A stretch of 64,000 bases of DNA from assembly GCF_003334785.1 (NCBI RefSeq), contig NZ_QOWV01000001.1; one strand, 5' to 3'. The notes under the pieces are model-generated. The model was given only the letters and a program-made list of their open reading frames with translations. It was not told the DNA's origin and did no database searches. Numbering within the stretch: the stretch's first letter is position 1; the number at the start of each line of letters is the position of its first letter. This document shows positions 2,658-34,382 of the stretch, in pieces. The position numbers and the translations under genes were made by a program. Origin of the DNA: Escherichia coli. Its GTDB lineage: Bacteria; Pseudomonadota; Gammaproteobacteria; Enterobacterales; Enterobacteriaceae.

Positions 2658-3152
2658 ATGGTAGATAGCAAGAAGCGCCCTGGCAAAGATCTCGACCGTA
2701 TCGATCGTAACATTCTTAATGAGTTGCAAAAGGATGGGCGTATTTCTAACGTCGAGCTTTCTAAACGTGTGGGACTTTCCCCAACGCCGTGCCTTGAGCG
2801 TGTGCGTCGGCTGGAAAGACAAGGGTTTATTCAGGGCTATACGGCGCTGCTTAACCCCCATTATCTGGATGCATCACTTCTGGTATTCGTTGAGATTACT
2901 CTGAATCGTGGCGCACCGGATGTGTTTGAACAATTCAATACCGCTGTACAAAAACTTGAAGAAATTCAGGAGTGTCATTTAGTATCCGGTGATTTCGACT
3001 ACCTGTTGAAAACACGCGTGCCGGATATGTCAGCCTACCGTAAGTTGCTGGGGGAAACCCTGCTGCGTCTGCCTGGCGTCAATGACACACGGACATACGT
3101 TGTTATGGAAGAAGTCAAGCAGAGTAATCGTCTGGTTATTAAGACGCGCTAA
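2658..3152 (+). CDS. lrp: Leucine-responsive regulatory protein (AsnC/Lrp family)
   Basis: Track ORF 2604..3152 trimmed to ATG 2658 (MVDSKKRPGKDLDRIDRNILNELQKDGRISNVELSKRVGLSPTPCLERV...), 164 aa with N-terminal HTH. Divergent from trxB across a 544-bp intergenic region. Confidence 0.95.
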   Translation: MVDSKKRPGKDLDRIDRNILNELQKDGRISNVELSKRVGLSPTPCLERVRRLERQGFIQGYTALLNPHYLDASLLVFVEITLNRGAPDVFEQFNTAVQKLEEIQECHLVSGDFDYLLKTRVPDMSAYRKLLGETLLRLPGVNDTRTYVVMEEVKQSNRLVIKTR

Positions 3153-3192
3153 CACGGAACAGGTGCAAAATCGGCGTATTTTGATTACACTC

Positions 3193-3208
3193 CTGTTAAT
3201 CCATACAG
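3193..3208 (+). promoter_or_regulatory. LexA (SOS) box candidate upstream of ftsK
   Basis: CTGT-taatccat-ACAG matches the CTGT-N8-ACAG LexA consensus, 79 bp upstream of the ftsK start. ftsK is known to have an SOS-inducible (dinH) promoter. Confidence 0.6.
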
Positions 3209-3286
3209 CAACAGTACTGGGGTAACCTGGTACTGTTGTCCGTTTTAGCATCGGGCAGGAAAAGCCTGTAACCTGGAGAGCCTTTC

Positions 3287-6200
3287 TTGAGCCAGGAATA
3301 CACTGAAGACAAAGAAGTCACATTGACAAAGTTAAGTAGCGGCCGCCGCCTTCTGGAGGCGTTGCTGATCCTTATTGTCCTGTTTGCCGTCTGGTTGATG
3401 GCTGCCTTACTAAGCTTTAACCCTTCGGACCCCAGCTGGTCGCAAACGGCCTGGCATGAACCTATCCATAATTTAGGTGGGATGCCCGGTGCGTGGTTGG
3501 CAGATACGCTGTTCTTTATTTTTGGCGTGATGGCTTACACCATTCCCGTCATTATTGTCGGCGGTTGTTGGTTTGCCTGGCGTCATCAGTCCAGCGACGA
3601 ATACATTGATTATTTTGCCGTTTCGCTACGCATCATTGGCGTTTTGGCGCTCATCCTTACCTCCTGTGGTCTGGCGGCAATCAACGCTGACGATATCTGG
3701 TATTTTGCCTCCGGTGGCGTCATTGGCAGCTTACTAAGCACTACGCTACAACCACTGCTACACAGTAGCGGGGGAACTATTGCGCTGCTCTGCGTTTGGG
3801 CAGCGGGCCTGACGTTGTTCACCGGTTGGTCATGGGTGACCATTGCTGAAAAACTCGGCGGCTGGATTTTAAACATTCTCACCTTCGCCAGTAATCGTAC
3901 CCGTCGCGATGATACCTGGGTCGATGAAGATGAGTATGAAGACGACGAAGAGTATGAAGATGAAAATCACGGCAAACAGCATGAATCACGCCGTGCCCGT
4001 ATTCTTCGCGGCGCGCTAGCGCGTCGTAAACGGTTGGCGGAAAAATTCATTAATCCGATGGGGCGGCAAACAGACGCTGCGTTGTTCTCCGGTAAGCGGA
4101 TGGATGATGACGAAGAGATTACCTACACTGCACGCGGTGTGGCTGCCGACCCGGACGACGTCCTATTTTCGGGCAATCGTGCAACGCAGCCAGAATATGA
4201 CGAATACGATCCATTATTAAACGGTGCGCCAATTACCGAACCTGTCGCTGTAGCAGCTGCTGCTACCACGGCGACACAAAGCTGGGCTGCGCCGGTTGAA
4301 CCTGTGACTCAGACGCCGCCTGTTGCCTCTGTTGATGTTCCACCTGCGCAACCTACAGTAGCCTGGCAGCCTGTACCGGGTCCACAAACGGGAGAGCCGG
4401 TTATTGCTCCTGCACCGGAAGGTTACCCACAGCAGTCACAATATGCGCAGCCTGCAGTGCAATATAATGAGCCGCTGCAACAACCAGTACAGCCGCAGCA
4501 GCCGTATTATGCACCTGCAGCTGAACAACCTGCGCAACAGCCGTATTATGCCCCTGCGCCAGAACAACCGGTGGCAGGTAACGCCTGGCAAGCCGAAGAG
4601 CAGCAATCCACTTTTGCTCCACAGTCTACATACCAGACTGAGCAAACTTATCAGCAGCCAGCCGCTCAGGAGCCGTTGTACCAACAGCCGCAACCCGTTG
4701 AACAGCAGCCTGTTGTGGAGCCTGAACCCGTTGTAGAAGAGACAAAACCCGCGCGTCCGCCGCTTTACTACTTTGAAGAAGTTGAAGAGAAGCGAGCCCG
4801 TGAACGTGAACAACTTGCGGCCTGGTATCAACCGATTCCAGAACCGGTTAAAGAACCAGAACCGATCAAATCTTCGCTGAAAGCACCTTCTGTTGCAGCA
4901 GTACCTCCAGTAGAAGCCGCTGCCGCTGTTTCCCCGCTGGCATCTGGCGTGAAAAAAGCGACACTGGCGACGGGGGCTGCCGCAACCGTTGCCGCGCCAG
5001 TCTTCAGTCTGGCAAATAGCGGTGGACCGCGTCCTCAGGTCAAAGAGGGGATTGGTCCGCAGTTGCCACGACCGAAACGTATCCGCGTGCCAACTCGTCG
5101 TGAACTGGCGTCTTACGGTATTAAGCTGCCCTCACAGCGTGCGGCGGAAGAAAAAGCCCGTGAAGCCCAGCGCAATCAGTACGATTCTGGCGATCAGTAC
5201 AACGATGATGAAATCGATGCGATGCAGCAGGATGAACTGGCACGTCAGTTCGCCCAGACACAGCAGCAACGCTATGGCGAACAGTATCAACATGATGTGC
5301 CCGTAAACGCAGAAGATGCAGATGCTGCGGCAGAGGCTGAACTGGCTCGTCAGTTTGCGCAAACTCAACAACAACGTTATTCCGGCGAACAACCGGCTGG
5401 GGCGAATCCGTTCTCGCTGGATGATTTTGAATTTTCGCCAATGAAAGCGTTGCTGGATGATGGTCCACACGAACCGTTGTTTACGCCAATTGTTGAACCT
5501 GTACAGCAGCCGCAACAACCGGTTGCACCGCAGCAGCAATATCAGCAGCCGCAACAACCAGTTCCGCCGCAGCCGCAGTATCAGCAGCCACAACAGCCGG
5601 TTGCGCCGCAGCCACAATATCAGCAGCCGCAACAACCGGTTGCGCCACAGCAGCAATATCAGCAGCCGCAACAACCGGTTGCGCCGCAGCAGCAGTATCA
5701 GCAGCCACAACAGCCAGTTGCGCCACAACCGCAGGATACCCTGCTTCATCCGCTGTTGATGCGTAATGGCGACAGCCGTCCGTTGCATAAACCGACGACG
5801 CCGCTGCCTTCTCTGGATTTGCTGACACCGCCGCCGAGCGAAGTGGAGCCGGTAGATACCTTTGCGCTTGAACAAATGGCTCGCCTGGTGGAAGCGCGTC
5901 TGGCTGATTTCCGTATTAAAGCCGATGTCGTCAATTACTCTCCGGGGCCGGTTATCACTCGCTTTGAATTGAACCTGGCACCGGGCGTAAAAGCGGCGCG
6001 CATTTCTAACTTGTCACGGGACCTTGCCCGTTCACTTTCGACGGTGGCGGTGCGTGTCGTTGAAGTTATTCCTGGCAAACCCTATGTAGGTCTGGAGTTA
6101 CCGAATAAAAAACGACAAACCGTTTATCTGCGCGAAGTTTTGGATAACGCCAAATTCCGCGATAATCCGTCGCCATTAACCGTGGTGCTGGGTAAAGATA

Positions 6201-7276
6201 TCGCCGGTGAGCCGGTGGTTGCCGATCTGGCGAAAATGCCGCACTTGTTGGTTGCGGGGACTACCGGTTCCGGTAAATCTGTCGGTGTGAACGCGATGAT
6301 CCTGAGCATGCTTTATAAAGCACAGCCAGAAGATGTGCGTTTCATCATGATCGACCCGAAAATGCTGGAGCTTTCGGTTTATGAAGGCATTCCGCATCTG
6401 TTAACGGAAGTCGTTACTGATATGAAAGATGCCGCCAACGCGCTGCGCTGGTGTGTTAACGAGATGGAGCGTCGGTATAAACTGATGTCTGCGCTGGGTG
6501 TGCGTAATCTGGCGGGTTATAACGAAAAAATTGCTGAAGCCGATCGCATGATGCGTCCGATTCCAGACCCGTACTGGAAGCCGGGTGACAGTATGGATGC
6601 CCAGCATCCGGTGCTGAAAAAAGAACCATACATTGTGGTGTTGGTTGACGAATTTGCCGACCTGATGATGACGGTAGGTAAAAAAGTGGAAGAGCTGATA
6701 GCACGTCTGGCGCAAAAAGCCCGTGCCGCGGGTATCCACCTCGTACTGGCAACTCAGCGTCCATCGGTTGATGTTATTACTGGTCTGATTAAAGCGAATA
6801 TTCCGACCCGTATCGCCTTTACCGTATCCAGTAAGATTGACTCACGTACCATTCTTGATCAGGCTGGCGCGGAATCACTGCTGGGTATGGGGGATATGCT
6901 CTACTCTGGGCCGAACTCCACGTTGCCGGTACGTGTCCATGGTGCTTTTGTTCGCGATCAGGAAGTTCATGCCGTGGTGCAGGACTGGAAAGCGCGTGGT
7001 CGCCCACAGTATGTTGATGGCATCACCTCCGACAGCGAAAGCGAAGGTGGTGCGGGTGGTTTCGATGGCGCTGAAGAACTGGATCCGTTGTTCGATCAGG
7101 CGGTGCAGTTTGTCACTGAAAAACGCAAAGCGTCAATTTCTGGCGTACAGCGTCAGTTCCGCATTGGTTATAACCGTGCAGCGCGTATTATCGAACAGAT
7201 GGAAGCGCAGGGGATTGTCAGCGAACAGGGGCACAACGGTAATCGTGAAGTGCTGGCCCCACCGCCGTTTGACTAA
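3287..7276 (+). CDS. ftsK: DNA translocase FtsK
   Basis: 1329-aa ORF with TTG start as in track. N-terminal TM segments, long P/Q-rich linker, C-terminal motor with Walker A GTTGSGKS, then gamma domain. Confidence 0.96.
4496..4573 (+). repeat. Two imperfect 39-bp tandem copies inside ftsK linker (QQPYYAPA-x-EQP)
   Basis: Direct repeat cagccgtattatgc(a/c)cctgc...gaacaacc(t/g) read from sequence, in frame within ftsK. Confidence 0.6.
5234..5380 (+). repeat. Duplicated 42-bp motif ([14 protein letters not shown]) inside ftsK linker, copies at 5234-5275 and 5339-5380
   Basis: Two 14-aa identical peptide motifs encoded with synonymous differences (gaactggcacgtcagttcgcccagacacagcagcaacgctat vs gaactggctcgtcagtttgcgcaaactcaacaacaacgttat). 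Confidence 0.7.
5504..5734 (+). repeat. Six tandem 39-bp coding repeats in ftsK linker ([10 protein letters not shown](Q/P)QY)
   Basis: cagcagccgcaacaaccggttgcgccgcagcagcaatat unit repeated 6 times with minor variation. Explains the low-complexity antisense track ORFs 5132..5875 and 5481..5828. Confidence 0.85.
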
Positions 7277-21334: not shown

Positions 21335-23617
<2,283 letters not shown>

Positions 23618-27715: not shown

Positions 27716-28804
27716 ATGGCTCAAATCTTCAATTTTAGTTCTGGTCCGGCAATGCTACCGGCAGAGGTGCTTAAACAGGCTCAACAGGAACTGCGCGACT
27801 GGAACGGTCTTGGTACGTCGGTGATGGAAGTGAGTCACCGTGGCAAAGAGTTCATTCAGGTTGCAGAGGAAGCCGAGAAGGATTTTCGCGATCTTCTTAA
27901 TGTCCCCTCCAACTACAAGGTATTATTCTGCCATGGCGGTGGTCGCGGTCAGTTTGCTGCGGTACCGCTGAATATTCTCGGTGATAAAACCACCGCAGAT
28001 TATGTTGATGCCGGTTACTGGGCGGCAAGTGCCATTAAAGAAGCGAAAAAATACTGCACGCCTAATGTCTTTGACGCCAAAGTGACTGTTGATGGTCTGC
28101 GCGCGGTTAAGCCAATGCGTGAATGGCAACTCTCTGATAATGCTGCTTATATGCATTATTGCCCGAATGAAACCATCGATGGTATCGCCATCGACGAAAC
28201 GCCAGACTTCGGCGCAGATGTGGTGGTCGCCGCTGACTTCTCTTCAACCATTCTTTCCCGTCCGATTGACGTCAGCCGTTATGGTGTAATTTACGCTGGC
28301 GCGCAGAAAAATATCGGCCCGGCTGGCCTGACAATCGTCATCGTTCGTGAAGATTTGCTGGGCAAAGCGAATATCGCGTGTCCGTCGATTCTGGATTATT
28401 CCATCCTCAACGATAACGGCTCCATGTTTAACACGCCGCCGACATTTGCCTGGTATCTATCTGGTCTGGTCTTTAAATGGCTGAAAGCGAACGGCGGTGT
28501 AGCTGAAATGGATAAAATCAATCAGCAAAAAGCAGAACTGCTATATGGGGTGATTGATAACAGCGATTTCTACCGCAATGACGTGGCGAAAGCTAACCGT
28601 TCGCGGATGAACGTGCCGTTCCAGTTGGCGGACAGTGCGCTTGACAAATTGTTCCTTGAAGAGTCTTTTGCTGCTGGCCTTCATGCACTGAAAGGTCACC
28701 GTGTGGTCGGCGGAATGCGCGCTTCTATTTATAACGCCATGCCGCTGGAAGGCGTTAAAGCGCTGACAGACTTCATGGTTGAGTTCGAACGCCGTCACGG
28801 TTAA
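27716..28804 (+). CDS. serC: Phosphoserine aminotransferase
   Basis: 362 aa [26 protein letters not shown]...; class V aminotransferase. Confidence 0.96.
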
Positions 28805-28823
28805 TGCCGAAATTTTGCTTAAT

Positions 28824-28858
28824 CCCCACAGCCAGCCTGTGGGGTTTTTATTTCTGTT
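28824..28858 (+). terminator. Terminator-like hairpin between serC and aroA (partial terminator/attenuator)
   Basis: ccccacag-ccagc-ctgtgggg 8-bp GC-rich stem followed by TTTTTATTTCTGTT, 17 bp before the aroA ATG. Confidence 0.7.
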
Positions 28859-28874
28859 GTAGAGAGTTGAGTTC

Positions 28875-30158
28875 ATGGAATCCCTGACGTTACAACCCAT
28901 CGCTCGTGTCGATGGCACTATTAATCTGCCCGGTTCCAAGAGCGTTTCTAACCGCGCTTTATTGCTGGCGGCATTAGCACACGGCAAAACAGTATTAACC
29001 AATCTGCTGGATAGCGATGACGTGCGCCATATGCTGAATGCATTAACAGCGTTAGGGGTAAGCTATACGCTTTCAGCCGATCGTACGCGTTGCGAAATTA
29101 TCGGTAACGGCGGTCCATTACACGCAGAAGGTGCCCTGGAGTTGTTCCTCGGTAACGCCGGAACGGCAATGCGTCCGCTGGCGGCAGCTCTTTGTCTGGG
29201 TAGCAATGATATTGTGCTGACCGGTGAGCCGCGTATGAAAGAACGCCCGATTGGTCATCTGGTGGATGCGCTGCGCCTGGGCGGGGCGAAGATCACTTAC
29301 CTGGAACAAGAAAATTATCCGCCGTTGCGTTTACAGGGCGGCTTTACTGGCGGCAACGTTGACGTTGATGGCTCCGTTTCCAGCCAATTCCTCACCGCAC
29401 TGTTAATGACTGCGCCTCTTGCGCCGGAAGATACGGTGATTCGTATTAAAGGCGATCTGGTTTCTAAACCTTATATCGACATCACACTCAATCTGATGAA
29501 GACGTTTGGTGTTGAAATTGAAAATCAGCACTATCAACAATTTGTCGTAAAAGGCGGGCAGTCTTATCAGTCTCCGGGTACTTATTTGGTCGAAGGCGAT
29601 GCATCTTCGGCTTCTTACTTTCTGGCAGCAGCAGCAATCAAAGGCGGCACTGTAAAAGTGACCGGTATTGGACGTAACAGTATGCAGGGTGATATTCGCT
29701 TTGCTGATGTGCTGGAAAAAATGGGCGCGACCATTTGCTGGGGCGATGATTATATTTCCTGCACGCGTGGTGAACTGAACGCTATTGATATGGATATGAA
29801 CCATATTCCTGATGCGGCGATGACCATTGCCACGGCGGCGTTATTTGCAAAAGGCACCACCACGCTGCGCAATATCTATAACTGGCGTGTTAAAGAGACC
29901 GATCGCCTGTTTGCGATGGCAACAGAACTGCGTAAAGTCGGCGCGGAAGTGGAAGAGGGGCACGATTACATTCGTATCACTCCTCCGGAAAAACTGAACT
30001 TTGCCGAGATCGCGACATACAATGATCACCGGATGGCGATGTGTTTCTCGCTGGTGGCGTTGTCAGATACACCAGTGACGATTCTTGATCCCAAATGCAC
30101 GGCCAAAACATTTCCGGATTATTTCGAGCAGCTGGCGCGGATTAGCCAGGCAGCCTGA
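28875..30158 (+). CDS. aroA: 3-phosphoshikimate 1-carboxyvinyltransferase (EPSP synthase)
   Basis: 427 aa [35 protein letters not shown]... Confidence 0.96.
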
Positions 30159-30201
30159 ATGAACAACGGGCAATAAATAGCCAAATCTTTCTTTATCAAA
30201 A

Positions 30202-30228
30202 CGTCGGCACATTGTCGGCGTTTTTTTT
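30202..30228 (+). terminator. Intrinsic terminator of serC-aroA operon
   Basis: RNA-level hairpin CGUCGGC-ACAUU-GUCGGCG (7 bp including two G.U pairs) followed by UUUUUUUU. At DNA level the arms look like a direct repeat. Confidence 0.6.
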
Positions 30229-30326
30229 CGGACCTTGTGAGTCATTTTGATTAATGGTAGCGTCGCTTGTCAATGTAAGTTGTTGATACATAATATTTAT
30301 ATATGATTAATCAACGGATGATTCAC

Positions 30327-31091
30327 ATGAAGAATACTAAATTACTGCTGGCGATTGCGACCTCTGCAGCATTACTGACAGGGTGTCAAAATACCCACGG
30401 TATTGATACCAATATGGCTATCAGCTCCGGTTTAAATGCCTATAAAGCAGCAACATTAAGCGATGCCGATGCAAAAGCGATTGCCAATCAGGGCTGTGCC
30501 GAAATGGACAGCGGCAATCAAGTCGCAAGTAAATCCAGCAAGTACGGTAAACGTCTGGCAAAAATCGCCAAAGCATTGGGTAACAATATTAATGGCACGC
30601 CGGTCAACTATAAGGTTTATATGACCAGCGACGTCAACGCATGGGCGATGGCGAACGGCTGTGTTCGTGTCTACAGTGGCCTGATGGACATGATGAATGA
30701 CAACGAAATTGAAGGCGTTCTGGGCCATGAACTGGGCCACGTCGCGTTGGGTCACTCGCTGGCTGAAATGAAAGCTTCTTATGCGATCGTTGCCGCACGC
30801 GATGCCATTTCAGCTACCAGCGGTGTGGCTTCCCAGCTTTCCCGCTCACAATTAGGTGATATCGCAGAAGGCGCTATCAATGCTAAATACTCCCGTGATA
30901 AAGAGTCCGAAGCAGATGATTTCTCCTTTGATCTGTTGAAGAAACGTGGCATCAGCACCCAGGGGCTGGTTGGCAGCTTTGAAAAACTGGCTAGCCTGGA
31001 TGGCGGTCGCACCCAGTCCATGTTTGACTCTCACCCACCATCAACAGAGCGTGCGCAACACATCCGTGATCGTATCGCCTCTGGTAAGTAA
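30327..31091 (+). CDS. ycaL: Lipoprotein M48-family metalloprotease YcaL
   Basis: 254 aa from ATG 30327 (MKNTKLLLAIATSAALLTGCQ...); lipobox LLTGC; HExxH zinc motif (HELGH). Confidence 0.9.
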   Translation: MKNTKLLLAIATSAALLTGCQNTHGIDTNMAISSGLNAYKAATLSDADAKAIANQGCAEMDSGNQVASKSSKYGKRLAKIAKALGNNINGTPVNYKVYMTSDVNAWAMANGCVRVYSGLMDMMNDNEIEGVLGHELGHVALGHSLAEMKASYAIVAARDAISATSGVASQLSRSQLGDIAEGAINAKYSRDKESEADDFSFDLLKKRGISTQGLVGSFEKLASLDGGRTQSMFDSHPPSTERAQHIRDRIASGK

Positions 31092-31263
31092 ATCATTGTC
31101 ATCTTTCGGGCTGGTCTTCTGCCAGCCCGCTATAATTGCGCAATAAATCCCCATCTGAATACAGACAAAACTGGTTTTTGCACACAACGTTAACGATTTG
31201 TGGCGTCGGCGCGTATAATGCGCGCGGTTATGTTAACGGTACGCCTGTTTTAAGGAGATAAAG

Positions 31264-31947
31264 ATGACGGCAATTGCCCCGGTTATTACCATTGATGGCC
31301 CAAGCGGTGCAGGGAAAGGCACCTTGTGTAAGGCTATGGCGGAAGCGTTGCAATGGCATCTGCTGGACTCGGGTGCAATTTATCGCGTACTGGCATTGGC
31401 GGCATTACATCACCATGTTGATGTTGCGTCGGAAGATGCGCTGGTACCGCTGGCATCCCATCTGGATGTACGTTTTGTGTCGACCAATGGCAATCTGGAA
31501 GTGATCCTCGAAGGGGAAGATGTCAGCGGCGAAATTCGTACTCAGGAAGTGGCGAATGCAGCTTCACAAGTCGCGGCATTCCCACGCGTTCGTGAAGCAT
31601 TATTGCGTCGCCAACGCGCGTTTCGCGAATTACCAGGTCTGATTGCCGATGGCCGCGACATGGGAACGGTGGTATTCCCTGATGCACCAGTGAAAATTTT
31701 CCTTGACGCCTCCTCGGAAGAACGTGCGCATCGCCGCATGCTACAGTTGCAGGAGAAGGGCTTTAGTGTTAACTTTGAGCGCCTTTTGGCCGAGATCAAA
31801 GAACGCGACGACCGCGATCGTAACCGAGCGGTAGCGCCACTGGTTCCGGCAGCCGATGCTTTAGTGTTGGATTCCACCACCTTAAGCATTGAGCAAGTGA
31901 TTGAAAAAGCGCTACAATACGCGCGCCAGAAATTGGCTCTCGCATAA
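31264..31947 (+). CDS. cmk: Cytidylate kinase
   Basis: 227 aa; P-loop GPSGAGKGT. Confidence 0.95.
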
Positions 31948-32057
31948 GCGACCGAATTTGCAGTACCCCCGTTGCAATGGAATGACAGCGGGTATGTTAA
32001 ACAACCCCATCCGGCATGGAGCCAGGTGGACGTTAAATATAAACCTGAAGATTAAAC

Positions 32058-33731
32058 ATGACTGAATCTTTTGCTCAACTCTTTGAAGAGTCCTTAAAAG
32101 AAATCGAAACCCGCCCGGGTTCTATCGTTCGTGGCGTTGTTGTTGCTATCGACAAAGACGTAGTACTGGTTGACGCTGGTCTGAAATCTGAGTCCGCCAT
32201 CCCGGCTGAGCAGTTCAAAAACGCCCAGGGCGAGCTGGAAATCCAGGTAGGTGACGAAGTTGACGTTGCTCTGGACGCAGTAGAAGACGGCTTCGGTGAA
32301 ACTCTGCTGTCCCGTGAGAAAGCTAAACGTCACGAAGCCTGGATCACGCTGGAAAAAGCTTACGAAGATGCTGAAACTGTTACCGGTGTTATCAACGGCA
32401 AAGTTAAGGGCGGCTTCACTGTTGAGCTGAACGGTATTCGTGCGTTCCTGCCAGGTTCTCTGGTAGACGTTCGTCCGGTGCGTGACACTCTGCACCTGGA
32501 AGGCAAAGAGCTTGAATTTAAAGTAATCAAGCTGGATCAGAAGCGCAACAACGTTGTTGTTTCTCGTCGTGCCGTTATCGAATCCGAAAACAGCGCAGAG
32601 CGCGATCAGCTGCTGGAAAACCTGCAGGAAGGCATGGAAGTTAAAGGTATCGTTAAGAACCTCACTGACTACGGTGCATTCGTTGATCTGGGCGGCGTTG
32701 ACGGCCTGCTGCACATCACTGACATGGCCTGGAAACGCGTTAAGCATCCGAGCGAAATCGTCAACGTGGGCGACGAAATCACTGTTAAAGTGCTGAAGTT
32801 CGACCGCGAACGTACCCGTGTATCCCTGGGCCTGAAACAGCTGGGCGAAGATCCGTGGGTAGCTATCGCTAAACGTTATCCGGAAGGTACCAAACTGACT
32901 GGTCGCGTGACCAACCTGACCGACTACGGCTGCTTCGTTGAAATCGAAGAAGGCGTTGAAGGCCTGGTACACGTTTCCGAAATGGATTGGACCAACAAAA
33001 ACATCCACCCGTCCAAAGTTGTTAACGTTGGCGATGTAGTGGAAGTTATGGTTCTGGATATCGACGAAGAACGTCGTCGTATCTCCCTGGGTCTGAAACA
33101 GTGCAAAGCTAACCCGTGGCAGCAGTTCGCGGAAACCCACAACAAGGGCGACCGTGTTGAAGGTAAAATCAAGTCTATCACTGACTTCGGTATCTTCATC
33201 GGCCTGGACGGCGGCATCGACGGCCTGGTTCACCTGTCTGACATCTCCTGGAACGTTGCAGGCGAAGAAGCAGTTCGTGAATACAAAAAAGGCGACGAAA
33301 TCGCTGCAGTTGTTCTGCAGGTTGACGCAGAACGTGAACGTATCTCCCTGGGCGTTAAACAGCTCGCAGAAGATCCGTTCAACAACTGGGTTGCTCTGAA
33401 CAAGAAAGGCGCTATCGTAACCGGTAAAGTAACTGCAGTTGACGCTAAAGGCGCAACCGTAGAACTGGCTGACGGCGTTGAAGGTTACCTGCGTGCTTCT
33501 GAAGCATCCCGTGACCGCGTTGAAGACGCTACCCTGGTTCTGAGCGTTGGCGACGAAGTTGAAGCTAAATTCACCGGCGTTGATCGTAAAAACCGCGCAA
33601 TCAGCCTGTCTGTTCGTGCGAAAGACGAAGCTGACGAGAAAGATGCAATCGCAACTGTTAACAAACAGGAAGATGCAAACTTCTCCAACAACGCAATGGC
33701 TGAAGCTTTCAAAGCAGCTAAAGGCGAGTAA
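32058..33731 (+). CDS. rpsA: 30S ribosomal protein S1
   Basis: 557 aa; six tandem S1 RNA-binding repeats; strongly biased codon usage. Confidence 0.97.
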
Positions 33732-33741
33732 TTCTCTGACT

Positions 33742-33772
33742 CTTCGGGATTTTTATTCCGAAGTTTGTTGAG
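33742..33772 (+). terminator. Candidate terminator after rpsA
   Basis: cttcgg-gatttttatt-ccgaag 6-bp stem followed by TTTGTTGAGTTT; weak structure. Confidence 0.4.
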
Positions 33773-33890
33773 TTTACTTGACAGATTGCAGGTTTCGTCC
33801 TGTAATCAAGCACTAAGGGCGGCTACGGCCGCCCTTAATCAATGCAGCAACAGCAGCCGCTTAATTTGCCTTTAAGGAACCGGAGGAATC

Positions 33891-34175
33891 ATGACCAAGT
33901 CAGAATTGATAGAAAGACTTGCCACCCAGCAATCGCACATTCCCGCCAAGACGGTTGAAGATGCAGTAAAAGAGATGCTGGAGCATATGGCCTCGACTCT
34001 TGCGCAGGGCGAGCGTATTGAAATCCGCGGTTTCGGCAGTTTCTCTTTGCACTACCGCGCACCACGTACCGGACGTAATCCGAAGACTGGCGATAAAGTA
34101 GAACTGGAAGGAAAATACGTTCCTCACTTTAAACCTGGTAAAGAACTGCGCGATCGCGCCAATATTTACGGTTAA
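33891..34175 (+). CDS. ihfB: Integration host factor beta subunit
   Basis: 94 aa [33 protein letters not shown]... Confidence 0.96.
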
Positions 34176-34201
34176 GTTTTTTACTCAAACTTGAACGAGA
34201 G

Positions 34202-34227
34202 AAAAGCACCTGTCGGGTGCTTTTTTC
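34202..34227 (+). terminator. Intrinsic terminator of ihfB
   Basis: agcacc-tgtcg-ggtgct hairpin followed by TTTTTT, 27 bp after the ihfB stop. Confidence 0.8.
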
Positions 34228-34382
34228 ATTTCTCTAATCTGGAACTGGAAGCTGCCTCGCAGAGTTTTGAACAGTTTTCACCCTTTCGTTAAATTCTTCT
34301 GAATATGCCTCGGGGAACGCAAAATTCCCACCAGACAACCGCTCAACAAAGTTGCACACTTTCCATAAACAGGGAGGGGTGC

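Follow-up and report, generated by a model that had tools for sequence, protein, structure and literature searches.

The LexA box at the proximal ftsK promoter of Escherichia coli and its conservation across Enterobacterales

The stretch of DNA analysed here (the window, 64,000 nucleotides of an Escherichia coli chromosome) carries two neighbouring genes on the plus strand: lrp, annotated at 2658–3152, and ftsK, the regulated gene, at 3287–7276 (1329 aa), with a spacer of 134 nt between the end of lrp and the TTG with which ftsK begins. The placement of that start is consistent across sources. The ORF list opens ftsK with TTG at 3287, RefSeq annotates the same start base, and the FtsK equivalog profile NF007615 matches the first 204 aa of the protein, beginning at profile position 1. 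TTG also stands at the estimated ftsK start in 46 of 48 Enterobacterales spacers, and in the alignments it lies with its Shine-Dalgarno sequence (GGAG at 3275–3278, TTG at 3287–3289; together 3275–3289, +) inside an initiation region, ACCTGGAGAGCCTTTCTTGAGCCAGGAA (3271–3297, +), that is almost unchanging across Enterobacterales. CCUGG and CCAGG in this region could pair, enclosing the Shine-Dalgarno sequence and the start codon; no covariation was seen for the stem, which says nothing either way because the block does not vary.

Several RefSeq genomes share a 1.1-kb stretch around the LexA box described below with 100% identity, and this stretch finds a match in every one of the 5,426 complete E. 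coli genomes; the flanking genes in matching E. coli genomes are annotated lrp and ftsK. Over the 161 nt compared with K-12 MG1655, window 3143–3303 equals 933,080–933,240 except for one base at 3303 (ftsK codon 6), and the lrp-ftsK spacer itself shows no difference between the two strains. Because of this identity, K-12 data map directly onto the window (window coordinate = NC_000913.3 minus 929,937). One of the RefSeq strains that are 100% identical around lrp-ftsK (NZ_CP025842.1, locus 28400–41100) has hok/gef, P2-like tail genes and IS600 after serS, and the window at the corresponding offset (from about 11000) reads pflB; given this difference in gene content, a prophage remnant that follows serS distinguishes the two strains.

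Gammaproteobacterial LexA boxes are imperfect palindromes of the form CTGT-N8-ACAG within a 20-bp consensus, TACTG(TA)5CAGTA. The spacer contains one such sequence. By direct reading, window 3193–3208 is CTGTTAATCCATACAG, a CTGT-N8-ACAG core, and the full LexA (SOS) 20-mer around it is TCCTGTTAATCCATACAGCA at 3191–3210 (no strand assigned; K-12 933,128–933,147), which agrees with the consensus at 14 of 20 positions. The core ends 79 bp before the ftsK TTG (3287 − 3208 = 79), just as the first-pass annotation had it. That the element is a LexA box is supported by four kinds of evidence: its sequence, its matrix score, its identity to a published box and its conservation.

The core motif taken alone carries little weight. 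The window has a single copy of the bare CTGT-N8-ACAG pattern where 0.70 would be expected, and at least one copy was present in 51 of 100 shuffled windows, a chance level that is not significant. These numbers favour the simplest rival explanation, namely that the element is a chance short palindrome in an A+T-rich intergenic spacer with no role in LexA binding. A stricter measure is a LexA weight matrix, which was symmetrised and built from 17 other published SOS boxes (PMC3009722 Table 4) with the ftsK box left out. With this matrix TCCTGTTAATCCATACAGCA scores 16.3 bits and is the top match of the 64-kb window, so the weight-matrix scoring proposed in the first-pass annotation came out in favour of the site. 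The score corresponds to P = 1.1e-6 per position, at which 64 kb would hold 0.07 such sites by chance and the 134-nt spacer 1.3e-4. On the side of chance, 16.3 bits was reached somewhere in 11 of 200 dinucleotide-shuffled windows, and the window holds one comparable match of 14.35 bits within pflB. The sequence by itself is therefore not conclusive without position and conservation, both of which are considered below. The pflB match, second best in the window, is TACTGTTTAGCCAGCCAGTC at 22146–22165, inside the minus-strand coding sequence of pflB (formate C-acetyltransferase); it is most likely a chance occurrence, since 0.22 such sites are expected per window.

The score also places the box among known SOS boxes. 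In a leave-one-out comparison the 17 known boxes score 7.2–27.9 bits, and the ftsK box falls just below that of uvrD and above those of dinG, dinB and polB, within the range of validated weak boxes. Its published heterology index (HI) of 9.2 lies below the value of about 15 under which validated boxes fall. The two halves of the palindrome are unequal: the second half-site had been described as the better match, which is borne out, if modestly, by scores of 9.04 bits for the right half and 6.95 bits for the left. The accompanying suggestion of a moderate-affinity site fits these data as well, but "the weak end of the regulon" describes the ftsK box better, considering its HI of 9.2, an induction of 1.5-fold and its low rank by matrix score.

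The position of the box relative to transcription is more informative. Two public data sets, Cappable-seq and SMRT-Cappable-seq, both from undamaged cells, put an ftsK start site at the A at window 3198 (+; K-12 933,135), inside the LexA box. In Cappable-seq it is the plus-strand start at U00096.2 932,358, and in SMRT-Cappable-seq the operon b0890 (ftsK alone) starts at 933,134. The offset of 777 between U00096.2 and version 3 was checked on the strongest neighbouring start, 931,551 (932,328 in version 3), which lies 267 nt before the lrp ATG, at what we take to be the lrp start position. The same start appears in the SMRT-Cappable-seq table as 932,327, so that table is apparently 0-based. Relative to the start at 3198, which belongs to the proximal ftsK promoter (ftsKp2, or dinH), the LexA 20-mer covers −7 to +13 and thus lies within the promoter of the regulated gene.

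The promoter hexamers around this start could be identified from conservation. The −10 hexamer is TACACT at 3186–3191 (+), with the start site 7 nt downstream. The hexamer and the LexA 20-mer share base 3191, where the one ends and the other begins; the hexamer is TACACT in 47 of 48 aligned spacers and TATACT in the remaining one. Further upstream, the −35-like hexamer GTGCAA (3163–3168, +) is GTGCAA in 39 of 48 spacers and ATGCAA in 7 of 48, always 17 bp from the −10 hexamer, with variable sequence between the two. We infer that GTGCAA is the −35 element. It lies inside a longer block, GGTGCAAAA (3162–3170, +), that is kept across the whole order at the fixed 17-bp distance from TACACT and is read here as the −35 region; some other factor could bind this block, as its conservation exceeds what is needed of a hexamer that fits the −35 consensus at 3 of 6 positions. 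Together the ftsKp2 hexamers fit the sigma-70 consensus at 7 of 12 positions, a match that falls outside the threshold of a simple promoter/terminator scan and explains why that scan reported no sigma-70 promoter near the box. A second arrangement was considered, in which TTGATT (3181–3186) and TACAGC (3204–3209), 17 bp apart, would place the box between −35 and −10. It was rejected because TTGATT is not conserved and because both start data sets give +1 at 3198, not near 3216.

Another plus-strand start lies upstream, at about 2993 inside lrp (Cappable-seq, U00096.2 932,153), and is preceded by TTGAAG (2957–2962), 17 bp and TAGTAT (2980–2985). It is probably ftsKp1, the dispensable distal promoter within lrp.

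Immediately downstream of the box the transcript can form an RNA hairpin (3208–3239, +), which corresponds to +11 to +42 of the ftsKp2 transcript and lies 56–87 nt after the lrp stop. Three lines of evidence converge on it: the minimum free energy fold, covariation and a Term-seq 3′ end. In the conserved helix 3212–3221 pairs with 3226–3235. Compensatory changes occur at each of the 10 conserved pairs in a set of 34 distinct Enterobacterales sequences, with 98.2% of cells able to pair; this covariation was equalled by none of 500 shuffles, and controls with slid positions collapse. About 9% of cells are G-U pairs, which indicates that the plus-strand RNA is what folds. The Term-seq data (PMC7815308 supplement) place a Rho-independent 3′ end at the foot of the stem, K-12 933,176 or window 3239. 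SMRT-Cappable-seq nevertheless contains full-length ftsK transcripts that begin at 3198, and in Moellerella, where lrp and ftsK have been separated (see below), the hairpin stays with lrp. An Rfam scan of 3000–3400 returned only a sub-threshold, meaningless snoRNA match, leaving the hairpin without an Rfam family. On the simplest reading it probably acts for lrp, as a leaky terminator or a protector of the 3′ end, and also lies in the ftsKp2 leader. A more elaborate and rather doubtful idea is that the box and the hairpin form a composite module: SOS derepression would then yield full-length ftsK mRNA together with a hairpin RNA of about 42 nt or an attenuated fraction, and the hairpin would set the share of lrp read-through and of dinH transcription that reaches ftsK.

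Conservation of the box was followed at two depths. Within the species, all 5426 complete E. coli genomes carry the box and its immediate flanks, a 36-mer, unchanged. Beyond it, 120 loci were drawn from a species-level genome collection, with the conserved codons at the end of lrp as the anchor. Of the 49 Enterobacterales loci with ftsK downstream, 47 have a box of at least 12.8 bits (12.8–21.1), 36–57 nt after the lrp stop. Another 62 loci belong to Vibrionales, Pasteurellales, Alteromonadales, Aeromonadales or unclassified bins, and no site above 10 bits was found at the lrp-ftsK junction in any of them (Pasteurellales have essentially no lrp-ftsK spacer, and the scan there covered the 300 nt that follow the lrp stop). 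The LexA motif is established to be the same in these four orders. The ftsK LexA site is thus order-specific: it extends across Enterobacterales and is missing from the lrp-ftsK junction of the four other orders.

These observations, with those on position, bear directly on the chance explanation. The box is the top-scoring match of the window and falls exactly over a measured start site, it is unchanged in 5426 E. coli genomes, and the same position is kept in 47 of 49 Enterobacterales species though adjoining spacer bases vary; in addition, ftsK expression has been published as LexA-dependent (PMC11228462). Conservation and position effectively refute a chance palindrome, which we regard as having almost no probability left.

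The pattern of substitution within the box is also what would be expected for LexA contacts. Across the Enterobacterales boxes TCCTG, A9/T10 and ATACAG are invariant, so that CTG and CAG are unchanging in the orthologous promoters, and substitutions occur only at position 6 (T or G, each of which is also found in known boxes) and at positions 7, 8, 11, 12, 19 and 20. The spacer alignment shows other conserved elements as well (GGTGCAAAA, TACACT, the hairpin, and the ribosome-binding region with the TTG), and this raises a second rival explanation: the block may be conserved for reasons unrelated to LexA, as a discriminator and initial transcribed sequence or as the sequence bordering the hairpin on its 5′ side; the palindrome would then be incidental or serve a factor other than LexA. 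Several features would suit such an origin, in that the box runs at its left end into the invariant −10, transcription starts within the box, G3208 and C3209 can pair in an extended E. coli stem, and the neighbouring non-LexA blocks GGTGCAAAA and TACACT are equally conserved. The details of the conservation argue for LexA nonetheless. First, CTG and CAG are fixed at a 10-bp separation while the centre varies, which is the pattern of the LexA motif. Second, a T-to-G change is tolerated at position 6, as in the ruvA and cho boxes. Third, many orthologous variants outscore the E. coli box for LexA, with scores of up to 21.1 bits. Fourth, the conserved helix proper begins at 3212, outside the box. 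Expression of ftsK after damage is, moreover, reduced by lexA3 (PMC11228462). Conservation for non-LexA reasons is accordingly judged very improbable, if somewhat less so than chance, and LexA binding remains the preferred reading of the block.

Two Enterobacterales loci depart from the general pattern. A Pantoea sp. symbiont of Nezara viridula is the sole Enterobacterales locus with normal spacing and a decayed box (TACACTTTCCTAAATTCGTACAAGT, in the region 20–60 nt after the lrp stop); the box may have decayed because a symbiont with a reduced genome has given up SOS control. In Moellerella wisconsensis an A+T-rich, apparently non-coding insert of about 800 bp (about 90–920 nt after the lrp stop) separates the lrp hairpin from ftsK. 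Neither the ancestral LexA box nor the ancestral −10 is intact at this locus, and the start codon of ftsK is ATG. This locus has a different LexA-like site, TACTGTGTTTTTAAACATAT (12.97 bits), 585 nt after the lrp stop.

The ftsK/dinH LexA box is already known, and the link between SOS and FtsK has been in the literature since the 1990s. Direct LexA binding at ftsK is reportedly the subject of primary papers by Lewis et al. (1994) and Wade et al. (2005), the latter said to be a LexA ChIP-chip study, and the original mapping of the ftsK promoters is attributed to Dorazi and Dewar (2000); binding is taken here from secondary citation. A 25-mer, ACTCCTGTTAATCCATACAGCAACA, has been published as the ftsK SOS box in a list of boxes upstream of UV-induced genes, and the window site matches it base for base (PMC3009722 Table 4). 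PMC6590174 likewise counts ftsK as a LexA-regulated gene for which an SOS box is known. Of its two promoters, the first, distal one is dispensable and lies inside the lrp reading frame, and the essential proximal one is the SOS promoter dinH (PMC4080785, citing Dorazi and Dewar, 2000; Wang and Lutkenhaus, 1998). In quantitative terms, the ftsK box has been assigned the heterology index of 9.2 noted above, AZT induces ftsK 1.5-fold and lexA3 lowers ftsK expression 1.7-fold, both effects being significant (P = 8e-17 is given; PMC11228462 Table 1). Ciprofloxacin likewise produces an early rise in ftsK, with a log2 fold change of up to 0.94 (PMC11002266). PMC9621596 names LexA and ftsK and gives no data on the ftsK box, and a literature search for comparative LexA-regulon papers mentioning ftsK gave nothing useful.

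The first-pass interpretation of the site as the LexA box of an SOS-inducible ftsK promoter is thus upheld by the identity with the published box, the HI of 9.2 and the LexA-dependent induction by AZT. The small induction of ftsK counts against a LexA operator, as does the 7/12 match of the promoter hexamers. Weighing all of this, with sequence, score, start-site position and conservation computed here and LexA dependence and damage induction taken from the literature, we identify the site with high confidence as the operator at which LexA acts on the proximal, SOS-inducible ftsK promoter (dinH = ftsKp2) of E. coli.

A mechanism consistent with these observations can be proposed. RNA polymerase would use the weak, highly conserved promoter GTGCAA-17 bp-TACACT and start at 3198. 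A LexA dimer on the imperfect palindrome at 3191–3210 would overlap the last base of the −10 and the start point and thereby hinder use of the promoter; we infer that steric occlusion is the mode of LexA repression at ftsKp2. DNA damage would activate RecA, LexA would cleave itself and vacate the operator, and ftsK transcription would rise. With a weak operator and a further promoter inside lrp, repression is expected to be partial, and for the same reasons basal ftsK expression persists and induction is small: ftsK, an essential gene, stays on without damage and is induced only about 1.5- to 2-fold.

The site ties the SOS response to FtsK, and thereby to chromosome dimer resolution and septum closure. 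Confirming the ftsK box brings no new biology. What is added here is the placement of the operator at base level over a measured start, the identification of the conserved promoter hexamers, and a phylogenetic boundary; these results are of use in annotation and give scans for LexA boxes a positive control.

The closest known system is the dinH/ftsKp2 operator of E. coli K-12, to which the window site is the same in sequence, position, gene and start site, with no difference in the element; that operator was reportedly described by Lewis et al. (1994), Wang and Lutkenhaus (1998) and Dorazi and Dewar (2000), whose work is cited via reviews. The weak boxes of dinB, polB, dinG and uvrD are similar to the ftsK box in matrix score (7–16.5 bits, leave-one-out), have published HI values of 8.5–13, and share with it partial repression and modest induction. 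Unlike them, the ftsK box controls an essential gene for cell division and DNA translocation, and ftsK also has an upstream LexA-independent promoter inside lrp; its induction is, together with that of lexA, the lowest in a published list (PMC11228462). The sulA (sfiA) box, the classical link between SOS and division, is likewise of the CTGT-N8-ACAG type and likewise precedes a division-related gene. It is a strong box (HI 5.4, 20-fold induction; PMC11228462) whose product inhibits division, whereas the ftsK box is weak and FtsK is needed for division and chromosome resolution.
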